Source of the DNA: Leucoraja ocellata
Lineage: Eukaryota
Direction of reading: 5' to 3'
Assembly: GCA_036785375.1 (NCBI GenBank)
Contig: JAWMAR010000982.1
Coordinates: 186,001-250,000 of the forward strand
Length of the DNA stretch: 64,000 bases
Positions 1-62,605 of this stretch are shown piece by piece. Below the pieces are notes generated by a model. That model did not search any database and was not told where the DNA came from. It was given only the letters and a program-made list of their open reading frames with translations. The translations under genes and the position numbers were made by a program. Position 1 is the first letter of the stretch. Each line of letters opens with the position of its first letter.

Positions 1-415
1 GCTTTTTGTTGCACACTATCGTCAAAGAAAAGGCTTTATATGCTTACAATCAAATTGTCCATAGTTTATAAATAAAGGATGCAACATTTAGTGCAAGATA
101 AAGTCCGATTAAAGATGGTTGAAAGGTCTTCGGTGAGGTGGATGGGAGGTCAGATCCTCACTCTAGCTGGTGAGAGGACAGTTCAGTTACTTGATAACAG
201 CTGGGAAGAAGCTGTCCCTGAATTTGGAGCTGTGCGTATCAAACCTCTGTACTTCTTGCCTGATGGGAACAGAGAGAAGAAGGAGTGACCAGGGATGAGA
301 TTGGTCCTTGATTATGTTGGTGGCCTTGCCGCAGCAGCGAGAAGTGTAGATGGAGTCAATGGAAGTAAGCTGGTTTGTGTGATGGTCTGGGCTGCGCCCA
401 GAACTCTCTACAATT
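1..415 (-). mobile_element. Rex1/Babar-type LINE 3' fragment
   Basis: Reverse complement reads like HSFFSLFPSGKKYRG..RTAPNSGTASSQL, a decayed form of the Rex1 C-terminus (LFSPLPSGRRYRS..RT.RFRDSFFP), plus 3' UTR. Same family as 35682-35990 and 48275-49840. Confidence 0.7.
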
Positions 416-6669: not shown

Positions 6670-7938
6670 AGGGCCTGTCCCACTTGCCTGCGACTGCATG
6701 CGTTTGGCGCGACCAAATCGGAAGCGGAGTTCGCGGTAAGTACGCGCAAAGTATATAAATAAAATTAAATTTAAACACGCTAAATTCGCGAGTGACGTAA
6801 TTCGCGTCATACTTACCAATCAGCTGGGCAGGAGCCTGGCCGACTGAAATTGGACGTCGCGCGATGATGTCATCACGCAACGGCACGCCGGGCGGTGACG
6901 TCATCGTGCAACGCCACGCACTAGGCGTACACTGTCAAGACGCTGCGTACGCCCTCAATGCGCCTGCAGGCCGACAGGCAGTTGCCGTGCGGAATTTTCG
7001 GTCAGTGAAGGAGTAAACGAAGGAGCTGATCATGGACTTTAGGAGGGCACATCATCCGAGGGCGTACACTCCATTGAGGATAAATGGGGATCCTGTGGAT
7101 AGGGTGAACTGTTTTAAATATCTGGGAGTCCATATCTCCGAGGATATGACATGGGCATCACACACCTCAGCACTCGTGAGTAAGGCAAGGCAGCGCCTTT
7201 ACCACCTCAAGCAATTGAGGAAATTCAGTGTGTCTCCGAGGATCCTCCAGTGCTTCTACGCAGTGGCGGTGGAAAGCATCTTGTCCGGGAGCATTACCAT
7301 CTGGTTTGGGAATTGCTCTGCCAAGGACAAGAAGGCTCTGCAGAGAGTAGTGCGTTCGGCCGAACGCACTATGGGAACTTCACTTGCCCCCCTTCAGGAA
7401 CTATACATCAGGAGGTGCAACTCCAGAGCCAACAATATCATGAGAGACCCCTTCCACCCCTGCAACGGACTGTTCCAGCTGCTACGGTCAGGCAAACGCT
7501 TCCGTTGCCATGCGGTGAGAACAGAGAGGTTGAGAAGGAGTTTCTTCCCAGAGGCCATTCGGACTGTAAACGCCTATCTCACCAGGGACTAACCCTACTG
7601 AACGTTTTTCCTTCCATTATTTATTATGTAAAGGTATATGTGTGTTATGATTGTGTTTATAGTTTGTTTGGTTGTTTGGTTGTTGTCTTTTTACACAAAA
7701 GTCCGCGAGCATTGCCACTTTAATGTCACTGCACATTTCGTATGTGTATGTGACAAATAAACTTGACTTGACTTGACTTGACAGTGCGGGATTTTTGGAG
7801 CCCCGCACGATGTCGGGACCAGCCCCGCACAACTCCATACGCCTCCGCGCTTGAAAGTGGGACCGGCCCCGCACGCCTCAAGCGACCGCGTTTGGTCGCG
7901 CCAGACGCATGCAATCGCATGCAAGTGGGACAGGCCCT
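6670..7938. mobile_element. Non-autonomous DNA transposon with ~50-bp TIRs (AGGGCCTGTCCCACTTGC...), interrupted by a Rex1 fragment
   Basis: Left end agggcctgtcccacttgcctgcgactgcatgcgtttggcgcgaccaaa; right end tttggtcgcgccagacgcatgcaatcgcatgcaagtgggacaggccct. TTAA on both sides (6666-6669, 7939-7942). CpG-rich interior. Confidence 0.85.
7008..7781 (+). mobile_element. Rex1/Babar LINE, 5'-truncated, with open C-terminal ORF (7032-7592)
   Basis: KELIMDFRR..FKYLGVHISEDMTW..KARQRLYHLKQLRKF..LLRSGKRFR..RTERLRRSFFPEAIR. Tail is gtgacaaataaa(cttga)n; CAGTG flanks both ends. Confidence 0.9.
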
Positions 7939-7960
7939 TTAACAAAGGCTTGTCTACTTT

Positions 7961-10900
7961 ACATAGAAAATAGGTGCAGGAGGAGGCCATTCGGCCCTTC
8001 GAGCCAGCACCGCCATTCATTGTGATCATGGCTGGTCGTCCCCTATCAATAACCCGTGCCTGCCATCTCCCCATATCCCTTGACTCCACTAGCCCCTATA
8101 GCTCTATCTAACTCTCTCTTAAATCCATCCAGTGATTTGGCCTCCACTGCCCTCTGTGGCAGGGAATTCCATAAATTCACAACTCTCTGGGTGAAAAAGT
8201 TTTTTCTCACCTCAGTCTTAAATGACCTCCCCTTTATTCTAAGACTGTGGCCCCTGGTTCTGGACTCTCCCAACATTGGGACCATTTTTCCTGCATCTAG
8301 CTTGTCCAGTCCTTTTATAATTTTATACGTTTCTATAAGAACCCCCCTCATCCTTCTAAACTCCAGTGAATACAAGCCTAGTCTTTTCAATCTTTCCTCA
8401 TATGACAGTCCCGCCATCAAAGGAATCAATCTCGTGAACCTACCCTGAACTGCCACAATAACAAGGATGTTCTTCCTCAAATTAGGAGACCAAAACTGTA
8501 CACAATACTCCAGATGTAGGCTCACCAGAGCCCTATACAACTGCAGAAGAACCTCTTTACTCCTATACTGAAATCTTCTTGTTATGAAGGCCAACATTCC
8601 ATTAGCTTTCTTCACTGCCTGCTGCACCTGCACGCCAACTTTCAGTGACCGGTGTACAAGGACACCCAGGTTTCGCTGCACCTCCCCCTTACCGAACCTA
8701 ACCCCATTAAGATAATAATCTGCCCCCTTGGTTTTGCCACCAAATTAGAATTACCTTTATTGTCATTCAGACCTTACGGTCTGAACGAAATTTCGTGCCT
8801 GCAGTCATACATACAATAATACAATAATAAACAACAATAAACACAAATTAACATCCACCACAGTGAGTCCTCCAAGCACCTCCTCACTGTGGTGGAGGCA
8901 AAAATCTTAGGGCTGCAGTCTCTTCCTTCCTCTTCTCCCTCTGCACTGAGGCGATACCCCACCAGGCGATGGTACAAACAGTCCCGCGGCTCATCGAACC
9001 CCACAAACGGGCCGGCTCAAACACCGCGGCCCAGGGTGGTCGAAGCTGCCGCCCTCCAGTCCAGCGGACGCAGCCGCTGGCCCGCGGCTGAACCCCAGAC
9101 TCAGGTCACCGCCGCCAGAACGCCGTCCCAGCCACCTGAGCACCGTTCCAGCCCCGAGCCGGATCGCCCTCATGTGAGTGCCGTTCCTCCCTCGAGCTGG
9201 GCCGCCCTGGTGGGAGCGCTGTACCTCCCTCGAGCTGGGCCGCTCCGACGGGAGCGCCATTCCACCCTCAGGCTGGGCCGCCCCGACGGGAGCGCCACAG
9301 CCCCTCACGGGAGAGTCTCAGCCCCGCGCCAGTCCGCCCTCACGGGAGCGTCACAGCCCCTCACGGGAGCGCCGTTCCAGCCCCGAGCCGGACCAAAGTG
9401 GATAACCTCATATTTATCTGTATTATACTGCATCTGCCACGCATCTGCCCACTCACTCAACCTGTCCAGGTCACCCTGCAACCTCCTAACATCTTCTTCA
9501 CAGTTCACACTGCCACCCAGCTTTGTGTCATCTGCAAACTTGCTAGTGCTGCTCCTAAATCCCTCTTCCAAATCATTAATATATATGGTAAACAGTTGCG
9601 GCCCCAACACCGAGCCTTGCGCCACTGCCTGCCATTCTGAAAAGGACCCGTTCACTCCTACTCTTTGCTTCCGGTCTGCCAACCAATTTTCTATCCATGT
9701 CAACACCCTACCCCCAATACCATGTGCTCTAATTTTAGTCACCAGTCTCCCGTGCGGGACCTTATCAAAGGCTTTCTGAAAGTCTAGATACACTACATCC
9801 ACTGGCACCCCTTCATCCATTTTACTTGTCACATCCTCACAAAGTTGCAGAAGATTAGTCAAGCATGATTTCCCTTTCATAAATCCATGTTGACTTGGAC
9901 CAATCCTTTTACTGCTATCCAAATGCCCCATTGTTACCTCTTTAATAATTGACTCCAGCATCTTTCCCACCACCGAAGTCAGGCTAACTGGTTTGTAATC
10001 CCCCATTTTCTCTCTCGCTCCTTTCTTGAAAAGTGGGATAACATTAGTTATCCTCCAATCCACAGGAACTGATCCTGAATCTATTGAACATTGGAAAATG
10101 ATCACCAATGCGTCCACTAATTCTAGAGCCACCTCCCTGAGGACCCTGAGATGCAGACCGTCAGGCCCAGGGGATTTATCATCCTTCAGTCCCATTAGCC
10201 TACCCAATACTATTTCTCACCTAATGACAATTTCTTTCAGTTCCTCTACCCCCTTAGATTCTCTGTCCTCCTGTACATCTGGGAGATTGTTTGTGTCTTC
10301 CTTAGTGAAGCCAGCTCCGAAGTAGCTATTCAACTCTTCTGCCATTTCCTTGTTGCCCATAATAATTTCACCCGTGTCTGCCTTCAAGGGACCCACATTT
10401 GACTTTGCTACTCTTTTTCCCTTAACATATCTAAAGAAGCTTTTACCGTCCTTTATATTCCTGGCCAACTTCCCCTCATACTTCATCTTTTCAGCCCGTA
10501 TTGCCCGTTTTGTTTCCTTCTGTTGTCCTATGAAAGTTTCCCAATCCTCTGGCTTCCGGCTACTCTTTGCTGTGTTATACATCTTTTATTTTAGTTTTAT
10601 TCTATCCCTAACTTCTCTTGTCAGCCACAGTTGCCTCCTACTCCCCTTAGAATCTTTCTTCCTTTTTGGAATGAAATGATTCTGCTTCTTCCGGATTATG
10701 CCCAGAAATTCCTGCCATTGCTGTTCCACCGTCATTCCAGTCTACTTTGGCCAGCTCCCCTCTCATGCCTTCATAGTCCCCTTTGTTCAACTGCATCACT
10801 GCCTCTTCCGATTTAACATTCTCCTTCTCAAATTGCAGATTAAAACTAATCATATTATGATCACTACCTCCAAGCTGTTCCTTTACCTCGAGTTCTCTTA

Positions 10901-16840: not shown

Positions 16841-17574
16841 TTGCGCGTAACCTCAATTGATCCCTTGTTCGCGCTGACACAGGAGTAAGCTCCACCGCCC
16901 GCTGTGATGTTATCCATCACCTGCTGACCCGCTCCGCTCTATGAACTTTGCTATTGAGCTGGTCCCCTCACAGTTTAGACGGAGAGCGCTGCTAGAAGGC
17001 GCTGAGATGACAGTCGGTTCCGCTGTCTGGTGATGGTTGCCGCTCGTAGCGCCGTGGCAGCGGTGAGTGAGTGTTACTGGCATGAACCCAACCCCCTCCT
17101 TCTCAACGCTCCTTCCCTCCTTGCAAGTTTACCCCTGGCTAGATTCCCCACACGCTGTGAAAGGAACTCCCCCCCCCCCCCAAATTGTCATGTTACTCAC
17201 GACACGCGACTCAATCATAATTATTTATATATATATTTCTACGAAAATTGTTCCCAATTGGGCCCCGCACCTCCTAAGGCCGGCTCTGCCCATGATGACC
17301 AAGCGTGTCCTGTCGCTGGCGGCTGCCTGAAGGAAGCTCTGTCCTCAAGAGCTACAATGTGAGCCACAACAACAGCCATGTTGACGGACCATGCGGTGGG
17401 TGAAGTAGGGCTCAATGGTGCATTTTGCGAGTCGAGGTTTGTTTAGGAAGCTGGGGCTCTAAGCGGCTGGGGAGATGATACAAACAGGGATGGGTCAGTA
17501 AGTCTGTCCTCTATATCCAAAATCCATTATAAAGGGGTCCGTCAAAACGATGGTTTACTGCATCTCTGATTGAT

Positions 17575-17710
17575 CTTCTTCCTTCGTGTGGCGTGCACAG
17601 CCTAAAGTTGTTGGACAACTTGTTCTATTTGATCTTCCGTTTGTGCACGTCGAGTTGATTGCATTAGTCGAAACAGGGTGGACCACGTGAAGGTTGCAAT
17701 CTTCCACCCC
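17575..17710 (-). mobile_element. 136-bp ribozyme-headed short retroposon, copy 1
   Basis: 11-bp TSD CTCTGATTGAT (17564-17574 and 17711-17721). Starts GGGGTGG and ends in a GAA-repeat tail. Same length and ends as copy 2 at 62470-62605. Confidence 0.9.
17657..17710 (-). ncRNA. Minimal HDV-like (CPEB3-type) ribozyme
   Basis: Minus strand: P1 GGGGTGG, J1/2 AA, P2 GATTGCA, P3 ACC, L3 TTCACGT, P3' GGT, P1' CCACCCT, GT, mini-P4 TTCGA, J4/2 CTAA, P2' TGCAATC. P1-P3 pair fully, with a G-U wobble at the cleavage site. Activity untested. Confidence 0.85.
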
Positions 17711-18699
17711 CTCTGATTGATGAAATAGTGAAATAGATTTAGTGTTGATTAAGTAATAAAATTAAAATGATCACTTTTTACAATTCCTTAAACATTGAAG
17801 TCCCAACATTAAGTAGTAAGAAATAATTTACAGGACAAAAAAAAGATTTTAGTTGGAAGCCAAATACCAAAAAGAAATGATAGGACTTTTAGTTCTGACG
17901 ATATCTAAACTGTTGATCAAGTGGATCTATTGCAGAGGACAAATGTACTCAGAATGACAAATTTTACATGCGTACATGTGTCAAGTATTAATCAGCTTTA
18001 TAAAGTAGGATAGTGTTGAAAGTGCTAAGAAAAGTTTACGAATTACTCCTCAAATTATAATTATTTTGAAAGTATAGGTTAAAAAAAAAACAATTACTCT
18101 GATTAGATTTGGCAGCTCTACACTAGAGTTCCCAATGTTGGTCAAGTTAACTTGGTTTAAAAATTCCCATACTTTTATTCACATTCACAAGTTTCATGCC
18201 CTCTAGCATTGCTATGAACCCTCTTAATTCCTTAATTTTAAGTTCTTAATCAACGCTTTCTTCATTTCATCATTTCTGCCCATATGCTCAAGCACACAGT
18301 CCCCAGGTTCTAGAATTGCCAGCCTGTGTCCTTTTAAACCTACTGAGTAAACATGAGGTTAGATTTTTAGTATAACCTTCCTTAGTTTGTACTTCGATTA
18401 CAACTATGCAATATGATTTGTGATTTTCTTTATTAAATTTGCTATACAAAGACATGCTGTTGAGAAGAAGTGCCGATGAGTAATTCTGTTGCAGCATTTG
18501 GAGTAATTGTTCATTATTTAGGATATATTAAAGCACAGTTTTTATGCTTCAAGACAAACTATACTCAGCAATACAGTATGGAAATTAGAAGGTGATTCAC
18601 ATGAACCTGGCTTTCCCTTTCCTTGTGGTAGAAGTTATAAATTGAAAAGGACCTGAGTAAGTAACCACAGTGCTTTTTGCGGATTGTACTCTGCAGGTG

Positions 18700-22027: not shown

Positions 22028-24232
22028 GGGGCAGCACAGTGGCGCAGCAGCAGTGCCTTACAGCGCCAGACACACAGGTTTGATCCTGACTATAGGTACT
22101 GTCTGTATGGAGTTCGTACGTTCTCATTGTGACCAGGACTAAACTGAAAAAGGAGATCAGAAGGGCACCAAGGGGCCAGGAGATAGCTCTGGCGGGTAGC
22201 ATGAAGGACGATCCCAAAATATATTATAAATACATAAGGGGGAAAAGGGTAACTAGAGAGAGAGTGGGACCTCTTAGGAATCAAAGCGGTCACCTCTGTG
22301 TGGAGCCACAGGAGATGGGCAAGGTCCTCAATGAGTATTTCTCCTCTGTATTTACCGAGGAGAAAGACAGTAGGACGGTGGAACTTGGGGCAGTCAGTGG
22401 AGGTTTCTTGAGAGCAGTCAGTGTTACCGTTGAAGTAGTACTGAAGGTACTGTCTTGTATGAAGGTAGACAAATCTCCAGGGCCTGATCAGATATATCCG
22501 AGGACATTGCGGGAAACTAGAGAGGAAATTGCGGGAGCCCTGGTTGAAATTTACGAGTCATCCTTAAATACAGGAGAGGTGCCGGAAGACTGGAGGGTAG
22601 CAAATGTTGTGCCTCTTTTCAAGAAGGGCTGCAGGAAAAATGCTGGGAACTATAGGCCAGTGAGTTTAACATCTGTAGTTGGAAAGTTACTAGAGGGTAT
22701 TCTGAGGGATAGGATATACAGGCATTTGGATGGGCAAGGGCTGATTAGGGATAGTCAGCATGGTTTTATACATGGGAGGTCATGTCTCACAAATCTGATT
22801 GATTTTTTTGAAGACGTAACCAAAATGGTCGATGAGGGCAGAGCTGTAGATGTTGTATATATGGATTTCAGTAAGGCATTCGACAAGGTTCTGCATGGTA
22901 GGCTGCTCTGGAAGGTTAGATCGCATGGGATCAAAGTAAATATAGCTGAATGGATAGCAAATTGGCTCCACGGAAGGAAGCAGAGGGTGATAGTGGAAGG
23001 TTGCTTCTCGGACTGGAGACTTGGGACTAGTGGTGTGCCTCAGGGTTCGGTGCTGGGCCCGTTACTGTTTGTCATCTACATCAATGATTTAGATGAGAAA
23101 ATGCAGGGCAAGATTAGCAAGTTTGCTGATGATACAAAAGTGAGTGGTTTTGCAGACAGTGAAGATAGTTGTGAAAGATTACAGCAGGATCTGGAACGAT
23201 TGGCCAGGTGGGCGGAGGAATGGTTGATGGAATTTAATGCAGAGAAGTGTGAGGTGTTGCACTTTGGGACGTCGGACAAGGGCAGGACCTACACAGTAAA
23301 TGGTAGGCCTCTGGGTAGTGTTGTAGAGCAGAGGGATCTAGGAGTACAAGTGCATGGTTCCATGAAGGTCAAGTCACAGGTGGATAAGGTGATCAAAAAG
23401 GCTTTTGGCACTTAGGCCTTCATCAGTCAGAATATTGAGTATAGAAGTTGGGAGTTCATGTTGCAGTTGTATAAGACGTTGATGAGACCGCATTTAGAAT
23501 ATTGTGTTCAGTTCTGGGCACCAAGTTATAGGAAAGATATTATCAAGCTTGAAAGGGGTCAGAAACGATTTACAAAGATGTTGCCAGGACTAGAGGGTGT
23601 GAGCTATAGGGAGAGGTTGGGTAGGCTGGGTCTCTATTGCATGGAGCACAGGAGGATGAGGGGTGATCTTATAAAGGTGTACAAAATCACGAGAGGAATA
23701 TATCAGGTAAATGCACAGAGTCTCTTGCCCAGAGTAGGGGAATCGAGGACCAGAGGACATAGGTTCAAGGTGAAGGGGAAAAGATTTAATAAGAATCAGA
23801 GGGGTAACGTTTTCACACAAAGGGTGGTATGTGTATGGAACAAGCTGCCAGAGGAGGTAGTTGAGGCTGGGACTACCCCATTGTTTAAGAAACAGTTAGG
23901 CAGATACATGGATAGGACAGGTTTGGAGGGATATGGACCAAGCACAGGCACGTGGGATTAATGTAGCTGGGACTTTGTTGGCCGGTGTGGGCAAGTTGGG
24001 CCGAAGGGCCTGTTTCCACACTGTATCACTCTATGACTCTTTGACCACAACGATTTTCTCCGGGTGCTCTGGTTTCCTCCCACACTCCAAAGACATACAG
24101 GTTTGTTGGTTAATTGAATGGTATAATTGTTCTTAGTGTGTAGGATAGTGCTAATGTACTTAGTGATCACTGATCGGCATGGATTAGGTGTGCCGAAGGG
24201 AACTGTTTCCGTGCTGTAACTCTAAGGTCTAA
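22028..24232 (+). mobile_element. HE1-type SINE split by a CR1 insertion (halves 22028-22135 and 24042-24232)
   Basis: The head lies before the CR1 and the V-domain/tail after it. TGACCA is duplicated at 22130-22135 and 24042-24047. Confidence 0.85.
22136..24041 (+). mobile_element. Young 5'-truncated CR1 LINE: RT domain to 3' end, one in-frame stop
   Basis: ORFs 22129-23415 and 23458-23961 share a frame, separated by TAG at 23413. Motifs YRPVSLTS, YMDFSKAFDKV, SGVPQGSVLGP, KFADDTK. Confidence 0.95.
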
Positions 24233-52922: not shown

Positions 52923-54470
52923 TTGTAGTGTACAAGAAGTTTCCTTTCTGTTCACTCAATCAGTTATCAGAATCTTTAGTAGATCACAAAATAGAGTGAA
53001 GAAAGCAACAAAGACAGTGGGTTCATTTTTGTTCCAGAAAATAATAGGCTTTATGAGTAGGTTATGTTCACATGACATGACCCCACCTCTTAAGAACCTT
53101 TGTTAAAGGGAAAATTAAACAGGAGAACAGAAAGTTTAAAAAGGTTTTTGTTTTTGCCAAGAAAAACAAGGTCAAAGATTTGCAGACTAAATTTCTATTG
53201 AATCTATAACTGGAATGTACTATTTAAACGAAACATTCATTGGTATCAAAATTTCTTAAAAGATATTGCTTCTCATCTGATGAATGAGCAAATTTACAAA
53301 CCTTACATGGTCATTTCATTTATTGTAAGGAATAAACTGTACCGTTTACCATGAATTAGCTGTCATTACTGATAATGAAGTAGAATATCCATATAAACTA
53401 TCCACAAATTAATGCTAAATTAATGTTTTTCCAGTTACAGATATTTGGTCTTCTTGTCTTAACTTCACCAACCCCAACTAGTCCTATCTTTGAACTAAAT
53501 GTCTGGATCCACTAATTTTTGTGCAAAATGTTTTTTGCCATAGAAACTAAATTAACTATCTTAAAAAATACGGGACAGAATAATGGTGAAAATGTACAGC
53601 AACATAACATTTTATTTATTTTTTAACTAATCCTTGCAGGTATTTCTGCCTGTCAAGAGATCGTGTGGGCCAACGATCATAGGAATTTTCAACCCCTGTA
53701 GTCACAGATTTAATCTCAGAAGACTAATTCTTAAACCTGTTCTTTAAACTTTTCAAACTAATGAATAACTTTGCTGGTCGTTAGCTATGCTGCTGGGGGA
53801 AGGGAGAGGGGCAACCTGTCAACTATTTTAAGAACAACTGTCCTCATTCACTTCACTGAAGGAAATGGATCTCTGGTAAATCAATCAAAGGTGCCAGAAC
53901 CCATTTAGGAATCTATAGTCCTCTCTCATGGCTGGACATGAATGGCTACTTTCGTTTATTGGAACAGAATTTGGGAGCCAACGGAGCAATCTTTTATGAG
54001 GGCAATTTCCACTCTTTCTCATACTAATTTAGCTTTTTCATGCAACAGTAGCTTAAGCAAGATATATTTAACAAATTGTTTGTCGTCATAATGAAAATTG
54101 TTACTCATTTACAACATACAATGGTAAATCTATTTGTGGTAATGAACAAACCTTCAAAAGTATATGAAGCTTTAGCATCAGAGTAAGTGAACATAGTAGA
54201 CTCTATCTTCTGTGGAGTTAATTTCATGCTCCAATAAAGATCAACAATGAATCTAGTCCTCCTACATTATTGCTTGAATGAAACTGATGTTATCTTTGTA
54301 GTATGGTGCTGTAATTAATTCAGGAATAATAAGTTTTTAATTAAGTTAAATTTTCTGCTAATATTTCCAACTCTGGTGAAATTAAACCCTTGCGTTGAAA
54401 AACCAATATTCTTCTTCGGTAAACCTTCACTCAAATGCCTATGAAATTCTAAACTGGTTACGTTTTTGAA

Positions 54471-56114
54471 TAACCATATAACCATATAACAATTACAGCA
54501 CGGAAACAGGCCATCTCGGCCCTACAAGTCCATGCCGAACAACTTTTTTTTCCCCTTAGTCCCACCTGCCTGCATTCATACCATAACCCTCCATTCCCTT
54601 CTCATCCATATGCCTATCCAATTTATTTTTAAATGATACGTCCTGCCAAGGTGTAGCACCTCACATTTATCAGCATTAAACTCCATCTGCCATTTTTCAG
54701 CCCATTTTTCCAAATGGCCTAAATCACTCTGTAGACTTTGGAAATCCTCTTCATTATCCACAACACCCCCTATCTTGGTATCATCTGCATACTTACTAAT
54801 CCAATTTACCACACCTTCATCCAGATCATTGATGTACATGACAAACAACAAAGGACCCAACACAGATCCCTGAGGCACCCCACTAGTCACCTGCCTCCAA
54901 CCCGATAAACAGCCATCCACCATTACCCTCTGGCTTCTCCCATTCAGCCACTGTTGAATCCATCTTGCTATTCCTGCATTTATACCCAACAGTTGAACCT
55001 TCTTAACCAACCTTCCATGAGGAACCTTGTCAAAGGCCTTACTAAAGTCCATATAGACAACATCCACTGCTTTACCCTCGTCAATTTCCCTAGTAACCTC
55101 TTCAAAAAATTCAAGAAGATTAGTCAAACATGACCTTCCAGGCACAAATCCATGTTGACTGTTCCTACAGACCCTGTTTATCTAGATGCTTATATATATT
55201 ATCTCTAAGTATCTTTTCCATTAATTTGCCCACCACTGAAGTCAAACTAACAGGTCTATAATTGCTAGGTTTACTCTTAGAACCCTTTTTAAACAATGGA
55301 ACAACATGCGCAGTACGCCAATCCTCGGGGACTATTCCCGTTTCTAATGACATTTGAAATATTTCTGTCATAGCCCCGGCTATTTCTACACTAACTTCCC
55401 TCAATGTCCTAGGGAATATCCTGTCAGGACCCGGAGACTTATCCACTTTTATATTTTTCAAAAGTGTCAGTACTTCTTTTACTTTGAACCTCATAGTATC
55501 CATAGCTACTCTACTAGTTTCCCTTACCTCACATAATTCAATATCCTTCTCCTTGGTGAATACCGAAGAAAAAAAATTGTTCAATATCTCCCCCATCTCT
55601 TTTGGCTCTGCAGATAGCTGTCCACTCTGTCTCTCCAATGGACCAATTTTATCCCTCGTTATCCTTTTGCTATTAATATAGCTGTAGAAACCCTTTGGAT
55701 TTACTTTCACCTTACTTGCCAAAGCAACCTCATATCTTCTTTTAGCTTTTCTAATTTCTTTCTTAAGATTCTTTTTACATTCTTTATACTCCTCAAGCAC
55801 CTCATTTACTTCATGCTGCCTATAATTATTGTAGATCTCCCTCTTTTTCCGAACAAGATGTCCAATTTCCCTTGAAAACCAGGGCTCTTTCCAATTTTTA
55901 CGGTTTCCTTTCAACCGAACAGGAACATAAAGATTCTGTACTCTTAAAATTTCCCCTTTAAATGTCCTCCATTTCTCTTTTACATCTTTCCCATAAAACA
56001 AAATGTCCCAGTTCACTCCTTTTAAATCATCTCGCATCTCATCAAAGTTAGCCTTTCTCCAATCAAAAATCTCAACCCTAGGTCCAGTTCTGACCCTCTC
56101 CATAATTATATTGA
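54471..56114 (-). mobile_element. CR1 LINE ORF2 with internal deletion of the post-RT region
   Basis: ORFs 55165-56103 and 54576-55145 (KYADDTK). Sequence jumps from KCEVLHLGRT to the last codons near 54637. Tail (tatatggt)n. Confidence 0.93.
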
Positions 56115-57243: not shown

Positions 57244-57514
57244 TAAGGTAAAATTCCAGACTGCTGATATTTAATCACCATATTTCTCTCAGATCACAAG
57301 TTGCCACATCATGGATAAACCAAGCAAAGGATTTAAAAAGTATCATGGTTAGCATTTCACCATTAACAGCCAAGCAGCCTGACCTTAAGCCAATTAATGT
57401 GCTAGTGATTGCCAGTCTGCCTCTTGGTCTAGTGACACATATTAGACAATATAACAAATAAAAATGTAGCATTTGTTATCAGCTTCAGTATAGATGATAT
57501 TTTTGGTCATTTAC

Positions 57515-57628
57515 CTGATCACGGCTAGCTTCAATGGAACTTCCTATGCCGTGAAAGGTTATTTGCACAGGTGAAAGTGTCAGGTAGGTCATACATTCTT
57601 TGCCGTTCTGCATATCACTGTACTGCAC
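57515..57628 (-). CDS. STAU2: Staufen homolog 2, internal coding exon (dsRBD5 part), phase 0/0, 38 aa
   Basis: Acceptor ttatttttctAG and donor CAG|GTAAAT enclose 114 open bp. VQYSDMQNGKECMTYLTLSPVQITFHGIGSSIEASRDQ matches recalled human STAU2 VHYCDRQSGKECVTCLTLAPVQMTFHAIGSSIEASHDQ. Not in the supplied ORF track. Confidence 0.93.
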
Positions 57629-62469: not shown

Positions 62470-62523
62470 GGGGTGGGAGATCGCAACCTTCACATGGTCC
62501 ATTCTGTTTCGACGAATGCAATC
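62470..62523 (+). ncRNA. Minimal HDV-like ribozyme, partly decayed copy
   Basis: GGGGTGG GA GATCGCA ACC TTCACAT GGT CCATTCT GT TTCGA CGAA TGCAATC. J4/2 is CGAA as in CPEB3; one P2 mismatch and extra G-U pairs in P1. Confidence 0.7.
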
Positions 62524-62605
62524 AACCTGGCATGCACAAACATAAGATCAAACAGAACAAGTTGTCTTACAACTTTAGGCTGTGCACGCCATATGCAAGA
62601 AGAAG
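62470..62605 (+). mobile_element. 136-bp ribozyme-headed short retroposon, copy 2
   Basis: 11-bp TSD ATCCATATATA (62459-62469 and 62606-62616). GGGGTGG start, (AAG)n end, collinear with copy 1. Confidence 0.9.

Follow-up and report, generated by a model that had tools for sequence, protein, structure and literature searches.

The 64,000-nucleotide stretch of DNA analysed here (the window; G000:C982:186001-250000) carries one coding exon of STAU2 and, in the introns on either side of it, two copies of a short retroposon headed by a predicted HDV-like ribozyme (Table 1). The closest named homologues of the exon are skate STAU2 proteins, at 98-100% identity. Its GT donor, at 57514, opens a 76,667-nt (76.7-kb) intron in which the copy here called A lies 39.8 kb past the donor and 36.9 kb ahead of the acceptor, in the sense orientation. 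A preliminary description of the window had placed this copy on the minus strand, like the STAU2 exon, ~40 kb downstream of it and with no STAU2 terminal exon in between, and no coding exon was mapped between 57515 and the ribozyme. The remainder of the gene was located on the same contig beyond the window, so that STAU2 exons are now mapped on the minus strand on both sides of copy A and its sense-intronic position is confirmed. The preliminary description had considered that the intron might be the last of STAU2; because a further coding exon, at about 156,870, follows the one at 166847, it is instead the second-to-last coding intron, with two coding exons beyond the ribozyme. The Staufen_C profile matches two exons on this contig and the same two on C221, which is the second haplotig of the STAU2 region, and a second Staufen_C locus (G000:C133:5532858-5535109) presumably represents the STAU1 paralogue. 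The second retroposon, copy B, lies in the intron preceding the STAU2 exon of the window, that is, in a different intron from copy A. Long open frames resembling fragments of other LINEs are also present in the window at 22096-23412 (+), 7880-8833 (-), 23203-24177 (-) and 53785-54693 (-).

Table 1. Features of the STAU2 locus and of the retroposon copies. Positions are those of the window unless given on contig C982; ribozyme elements are numbered in nt from G1 of copy A.
Feature	Position	Strand	Remarks
STAU2 coding exon, Staufen_C region	57515..57628	-	38 codons, residues 577-614; protein mapping
Next STAU2 exon	C982:166847-166758	-	Residues 615-644; protein mapping; outside the window
Last STAU2 coding exon	C982 about 156,870-156,733	-	Protein mapping; outside the window
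Copy A, bipartite non-autonomous retroposon	17575..17710	-	136 nt; youngest subfamily; sense to STAU2
Upstream target-site duplication of copy A	17711..17721	-	11 nt; gives G at -1
Downstream target-site duplication of copy A	17564..17574	-	11 nt; identical to the upstream one
Copy B	62470..62605	+	Older subfamily; 11-nt target-site duplication; antisense to STAU2
Nt 1-72, also found at the partner LINE's 5' end	17639..17710	-	87-94% identity, 7/12 fetched 5' ends
Nt 100-136, also found at the partner LINE's 3' end	17575..17611	-	GAA-repeat tail; 29/30 LINE loci, 80-92%
Predicted HDV-like ribozyme fold	17657..17710	-	54 nt; structure descriptor and pair check; variants with compensatory changes lie upstream of the ORFs of related LINEs
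Ribozyme P1	nt 1-7/30-36	-	7 bp, closed by G1.U36; every pair intact
Ribozyme J1/2		-	2 nt
Ribozyme P2	nt 10-16/48-54	-	7 bp; every pair intact
Ribozyme P3	nt 17-19/27-29	-	3 bp; every pair intact
Ribozyme L3	nt 20-26	-	7 nt; contains U20, C22, A23, G25
Ribozyme P1.1	nt 22/37	-	Single pair C22-G37
Ribozyme P4	nt 38-43	-	Stub only
Predicted catalytic C44	17667	-	In 4-nt J4/2
Predicted cut	Between 17711 and 17710	-	5' of G1

The 54-nt head of copy A is by sequence a complete HDV-like double pseudoknot in which P4 is reduced to a stub. P1, P2, P3 and P1.1 are nested as in other HDV-like ribozymes, and the helices, reported as intact in the preliminary description, were verified pair by pair in all four. 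The core features used for comparison (as given in PMC4836649) are likewise present, namely the G1.U wobble, U20.G25 and a C in J4/2, and HDV-like self-cleavage 5' of G1 is predicted. P4 is a stub because the gap from P1 to C44 amounts to 7 nt only; the P4 helix of HDV-like ribozymes is thus absent, and the fold fits the minimal P4-less subtype. The structure descriptor matched the 64-kb window at 17710-17657 (-) alone and none of 200 shuffled windows, and an Rfam scan of the region listed no ribozyme family among its matches at E<=5 or E<=10. Competing helices were assessed with ViennaRNA, used for this purpose only, pseudoknots being beyond its folding. The predicted hairpin in the flank of copy A ranks 7/28 and is hence ordinary; a specially inhibitory flank was considered and rejected on this rank and on a P1 probability of 0.88 vs a median of 0.64. 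In the 3' body (17575-17656, minus strand), a long stem enclosing a 7-bp hairpin is predicted, which may be what the LINE protein recognises.

Copy A ends in a GAA-repeat tail and shares 86% identity with copy B. By its diagnostic bases the latter belongs to an older subfamily; it has 11 private changes, G25A included, and its predicted fold is damaged by G25A, a P2 mismatch and two P1 G-U wobbles, in keeping with the earlier remark that the antisense copy is the more decayed. The two copies, initially taken as a sample of two, belong to a family of at least 8,382 members as counted by a 17-mer of the element 5' end (ribozyme), for which the assembly contains 8,382 exact matches; a 21-mer of the 3' end has 8,203, and the reversed controls have 0 in both cases. 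Family size is estimated at ~19,000 (17-mer present in 13/30 of the first 3' matches on contig C1; 3.44-Gb assembly), a figure that also counts haplotig duplicates and LINE ends. The 5' end is reached by 23 of 30 copies picked via the 3' end. Among 77 full-length copies, 12 of which were removed as flank duplicates, 47 of the 65 independent ones display a target-site duplication of at least 9 nt with at most one mismatch, mostly of 11-12 nt; since 12/77 sampled copies are haplotig duplicates, the counts overstate haploid numbers. A 99%-identical copy on C221 was rejected as an independent copy, being the allele of copy A on the second haplotig. At family density, 2.3 copies are expected in the 410 kb around STAU2 and 2 are observed; the placement of copy A matches chance density.

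Several further properties of the family were recorded. Position -1 is T in 31, C in 14, A in 9 and G in 6 of 60 copies, an order that parallels how actively HDV cleaves with each base (U>C>A>G) and may simply reflect the target preference of the endonuclease. The A-rich middle of the element (nt about 75-103) is interrupted by other repeats in four loci (L024-L027). Tandem units of ~1.9 kb occur at G000:C1:19.26-19.28 Mb and 19.41-19.43 Mb (L085-L088), most of them carrying a young, near-intact element copy in the same orientation, and these arrays could give unit-length RNAs via self-cleavage. ARAGORN found no tRNA at the four array loci, and an Rfam search of two of them (L085-L086) returned no match exceeding the gathering score.

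Coding DNA upstream of 2 of 30 3' matches (one locus, duplicated) led to the LINE family with which the element shares its ends. A near-complete, broken and 5'-truncated LINE copy (L225) encodes AP endonuclease (APE) and RT. In the database it most resembles P0121, a protein of 1,019 aa that shares 67% identity with it in the endonuclease region; a domain search of P0121 yielded APE and RT matches but none to RNase H. The LINE ORF reads into the last 38-45 nt of the element, matched in 29/30 loci, and the ribozyme and the sequence to nt 72 stand upstream of the LINE ORF in 7 of 12 5' ends (5 independent) fetched from 40 listed endonuclease matches. Both ends can be assigned to one LINE family because L225, a copy with the 3' end, supplied the ORF through which the 5' ends were found. 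Since the LINE shares the ribozyme 5' end as well as the 3' end, the short element is an internally deleted LINE derivative, with nt 73-99 outside both shared parts (nt 1-72 and 100-136). It hence combines the features of bipartite LINE derivatives, a LINE 5' end, a LINE 3' end with tail, and dispersed copies with target-site duplications, which together with the tracing of a Vingi-like partner bear out the retroposon origin proposed in the preliminary description. RTE, the initial guess for the partner, was dropped because the LINE has a C-terminal Cys/His motif, which presumably links it to Ingi/Vingi. Its compact single ORF with APE and RT and no RNase H corresponds to the Vingi layout (as defined in PMC13708176), and the LINE appears to be Vingi-like, a clade name that reflects domain layout rather than a tree, and it might still belong to RTE. 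Another LINE family, related at about 40% identity (e.g., G000:C149:4347559), has long open frames of up to 645 aa around the match and may be younger.

Relatives of the LINE in metagenomes bear on the predicted fold. Sufficient upstream DNA was available at 48/80 metagenome loci, and an HDV-like fold occurs upstream in 5/48 of these (two of the five near-identical), vs 0/48 in antisense and 0/480 in shuffles. In these folds P4 is long, and P1, P2 and P3 differ in sequence through changes that compensate each other.

The better preservation of copy A had been noted with the caveat that it might simply reflect age. Over nt 1-128, a stretch that takes in the 74 nt of body outside the ribozyme, copy A shows 0 private changes, and four further independent loci, from a set picked for an identical ribozyme, are identical to it over the same stretch; the identical 54-nt ribozyme is found at 80 places, counting copy A and its allele. 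Private changes in copy B affect 5/54 ribozyme nt vs 6/74 body nt (p=1.0), and three samples of the family give ribozyme and body values of 64/1080 (5.9%) vs 49/1048 (4.7%; p=0.21), 51/777 (6.6%) vs 74/1523 (4.9%; p=0.10), and 43/918 (4.7%) vs 64/1255 (5.1%; p=0.69). Family-wide, the ribozyme decays at the rate of the body. Haplotig differences at copy A number 1/138 in the element vs 6/846 in the flank (p=1.0). Copy A nonetheless belongs to a best-preserved minority, only 1/20 copies picked via the 3' end having an unchanged ribozyme; all helices and core bases are kept in 6/20. Copy A shows no excess conservation over flank and body, a comparison of low power at so little elapsed divergence: at ~1% per lineage, 128 nt would stay free of change under neutrality with a probability of 0.30, and the 54 nt, at minimum age, with one of about 0.60, a result that leaves room for selection. 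The unchanged body, the 80 identical ribozymes, the older subfamily of copy B and the equal family decay of ribozyme and body indicate that copy A is intact because it is recent. The caveat is thus borne out, and selection on copy A finds no support, its body being as unchanged as its ribozyme.

Recent as it is, the insertion has persisted, since both haplotigs carry it and two other organisms appear to do so. In a comparison drawing on 4 of 24 listed sequencing runs, the unique 5' flank of copy A is joined to the element in contigs of organisms A (X2), B (X3) and C (X5), which reach 25, 25 and 18 nt into it, respectively, and then end. Over about 910 letters, 5 (X2), 8 (X3) and 17 (X5) differ, all of those in X2 and X3 falling in the flank; the first 25 element nt are unchanged in organism B, and all five flank differences of X2 are common to the C221 haplotig. 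The organisms are very close, with 0.5-1.9% difference vs 0.7% between the haplotigs, and a heterozygosity of 1.6% is given for the little skate (bioRxiv 10.1101/2022.03.21.485123). No empty-site joint was seen among the 15 of 47 joints listed. The insertion of copy A is present on both haplotigs and apparently common to two closely related skates, so the species-specificity that would have counted against the preliminary view does not appear to hold; because the overlaps are shorter than the bridging threshold of 31 letters, sharing is strongly suggested rather than formally proven.

Transcription of the family was surveyed in X24, an oligo-dT, unstranded library of organism B of which about 5% of the run was read. 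The 3,760 reads aligned fall mostly on the element and evidently derive from many loci; 888 continue past 17710 into unrelated flanks, and 282 have a loose end behind 17711. These loose ends have a consensus (agreement 0.6) that matches the SMART template-switch oligonucleotide in reverse complement (sequence in PMC8579666, Table 1). In the listed read class, the three G's of the adapter precede the four G's of the element, the order that an RNA beginning at G1 would give. Template switching is described as marking capped and uncapped ends alike and as able to invade at G runs (PMC6280765). The adapter ends suggest, at the level of the family, 5' ends at the predicted cut, and cleavage during library preparation could also have generated them; the pile-up table of read ends for these alignments listed no place. 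On the unique 5' flank of copy A there are 0 reads at ~5% of the run, and X24 is therefore uninformative on the STAU2 locus.

A ribozyme cut 39.8 kb into the intron would be expected to leave a broken intron, not a short mRNA. Furthermore, a short isoform made by intronic polyadenylation would be decided earlier, because 31 AATAAA hexamers precede the ribozyme in the host intron, the first of them 913 nt past the donor. A C-terminal choice at this donor does exist in other vertebrates, since 35/98 STAU2 homologues continue differently after the 57515-57628 exon, and four splice isoforms are described for mammalian Stau2 (PMC2893162). Among 24 named cartilaginous-fish STAU2 entries, however, 17 run straight to the next exon, one contains a cassette and six are without the exon; none ends just after it, a count from which 90% clustering could hide a short form. 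With no short entry among these fishes and a broken intron as the probable product of cleavage, the switch between long and short C-terminal isoforms proposed for copy A is not borne out.

RNA polymerase moves at 1-3.5 kb/min, so travel to the 3' splice site (36.9 kb) would take at least 10 min, and a 2-min half-life is calculated to leave <3% of introns whole. Such a half-life is that of the CPEB3 ribozyme, for which about 2 min is reported to match the time taken to reach the next exon (PMC10919898). Fast cleavage would thus spare <3% of introns, yet both haplotigs carry the insertion, which suggests slow cleavage or tolerant splicing. In the HDV ribozyme, G-1 is the slowest -1 base, >25-fold slower than U-1 (PMC1874588), and in L1Tc, G-1 is said to disturb the single-pair P1.1 (PMC3185411). 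A strand-skew proxy for sense/antisense bias gave -0.001 +/- 0.012 over 74 loci, with a calibration of 0.024 +/- 0.112 per tile that leaves it no power.

The reading that best accounts for these observations, and one that may be held with some assurance, is that copy A, young and derived from a Vingi-like LINE by internal deletion, is a chance passenger in STAU2, and that its predicted ribozyme is likely of use to the element and not to the gene. An element copy would be co-transcribed within a host transcript, and the predicted ribozyme would cut 5' of G1, setting the 5' end of the element; the fold evident from sequence and covariation, and the G1 ends suggested at family level, are consistent with this step. 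The APE/RT protein of the LINE would then recognise the common 3' end in trans and insert the copy with a target-site duplication of ~11-12 nt, and one such insertion would by chance have fallen, sense-oriented, into the second-to-last STAU2 intron, where it would be intact as a recent arrival. STAU2 is likely little affected by it, because G-1 and flank pairing would slow the cut or because splicing would tolerate it. Copy A is hence a member, with a genuine ribozyme-like head, of a genuine retroposon family, and a probable passenger in STAU2.

Three other accounts share part of this evidence. Copy A might cut a considerable fraction of nascent STAU2 transcripts, with less full-length mRNA as a tolerated, non-adaptive side effect, which is rather unlikely. 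All its helices and core bases are intact, 282 X24 reads have the template-switch adapter adjoining G1, and the acceptor is 36.9 kb off, at least 10 min away at the polymerase speeds given above. Fast intronic ribozymes are, moreover, known to lower splicing (Fong 2009, as cited in PMC10919898). This account is weakened by the unfavourable G-1 and by the presence on both haplotigs of an insertion that, with a CPEB3-like 2-min half-life, would leave <3% of introns whole. The tolerance that it shares with the passenger reading gives way to selection in the view of the preliminary description, whereby copy A would be an incipiently domesticated switch of the CPEB3 type, shifting STAU2 between long and short C-terminal isoforms. 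Such a switch is very improbable: the placement, in sense, within the intron following the exon at which 35/98 homologues diverge, the CPEB3-like core, and an element intact on both haplotigs and with its first 25 nt unchanged in organism B would all suit it, but the body is unchanged to the same degree as the ribozyme, the same 54 nt recur at 80 places, and the placement fits chance density. Cleavage by itself would not be expected to make a short mRNA, none of the 24 named cartilaginous-fish entries is short (with the proviso on 90% clustering), and no CPEB3-type match is found in Rfam.

The third account holds that the 5' head is mainly an internal promoter, that the P4-less fold has little or no cleavage activity, and that the G1 ends would be transcription starts or library artefacts. 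Pr77 of L1Tc is described as having dual promoter and ribozyme function (PMC3185411), template switching marks capped ends also and invades at G runs (PMC6280765), and 888 reads of the unstranded X24 library pass through 17710 into other flanks. Against this, distant relatives maintain the fold by compensatory changes (5/48 sense, 0/48 antisense, 0/480 shuffles), P4-less HDV-like ribozymes are reported as active in vitro (PMC10879173), and the full three G's of the adapter stand before the four of the element in the listed read class; a promoter with little or no cleavage is hence to be given scant credence. The boldest possibility, that skate introns hold thousands of active P4-less 54-nt HDV-like ribozymes spread by a Vingi-derived mini-retroposon and that the STAU2 copy is an early but already selected CPEB3-type switch metering full-length Staufen2, is a long shot; if true, intronic ribozyme domestication would have been caught in progress at STAU2.

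For STAU2, the passenger reading makes copy A probably ordinary, and it is the P4-less ribozyme family that matters more. The sense-intronic position of copy A is that of CPEB3-type domesticated ribozymes, and its ribozyme shares with the mammalian CPEB3 ribozyme G1.U36, U20, C22, A23 and G25, as well as a single G-C pair in P1.1 beside U-U and the catalytic C in a 4-nt J4/2 (PMC10919898, PMC4836649). The CPEB3 ribozyme differs in being a single locus, conserved for >100 million years and with a full P4 (PMC10919898, PMC4836649), whereas copy A is recent, has thousands of sister copies, stands 36.9 kb ahead of the acceptor and gives no Rfam match; the marks of the CPEB3 ribozyme family, an Rfam match and orthology to CPEB3 intron 2, are absent, the host gene being STAU2. 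The parallel with CPEB3 drawn at the outset hence stands as regards sense-intronic position and a CPEB3-like core, and finds no support as regards family match, selection and isoform switch. The family offers thousands of natural intronic insertions graded in age, orientation and -1 base, which, with an annotated skate genome, would test the cost of intronic self-cleavage, through sense depletion of intact copies, and the recruitment of CPEB3-type ribozymes from retroposons.

LINEs headed by ribozymes and their short derivatives are already known (PMC6765202, PMC5786205, PMC4494074, PMC3185411). Bipartite non-autonomous derivatives with a 5' ribozyme include NARTc/RIME (from L1Tc/Ingi), R2 SIDEs and derivatives of Vingi-1_EE (PMC3185411, PMC5786205, PMC3414825). 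Like these, the skate element joins LINE 5' and 3' ends around a deleted ORF, with a ribozyme at +1, a single-pair P1.1 and target-site duplications; unlike them, it resides in a vertebrate, measures only 136 nt, numbers about 10^4 copies and has a 54-nt ribozyme with a P4 stub. The six ribozyme-bearing LINE clades listed in PMC5786205 are R1, R2, R4 and RTE along with Ingi and LOA, a list without Vingi, and the partner described here would bring a Vingi-like LINE among the ribozyme-headed clades. Within the literature searched, Repbase aside, the Vingi-like carrier, the P4-less 54-nt form in a vertebrate and the copy number are new, and the skate element family may already be catalogued. In its very short double pseudoknot with an absent or vestigial P4, the skate form resembles the drz-Mtgn and theta ribozymes (PMC10879173). 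According to the same source, about 99% of minimal P4-less HDV-like ribozymes occur in phages, often linked to tRNAs, and the eukaryotic set comprises human, mouse and protists. Unlike drz-Mtgn and theta, the skate form heads a vertebrate retroposon and has no tRNA beside it at the four array loci, and the family thereby puts a P4-less HDV-like ribozyme, so far reported almost only from phages, into a vertebrate genome.
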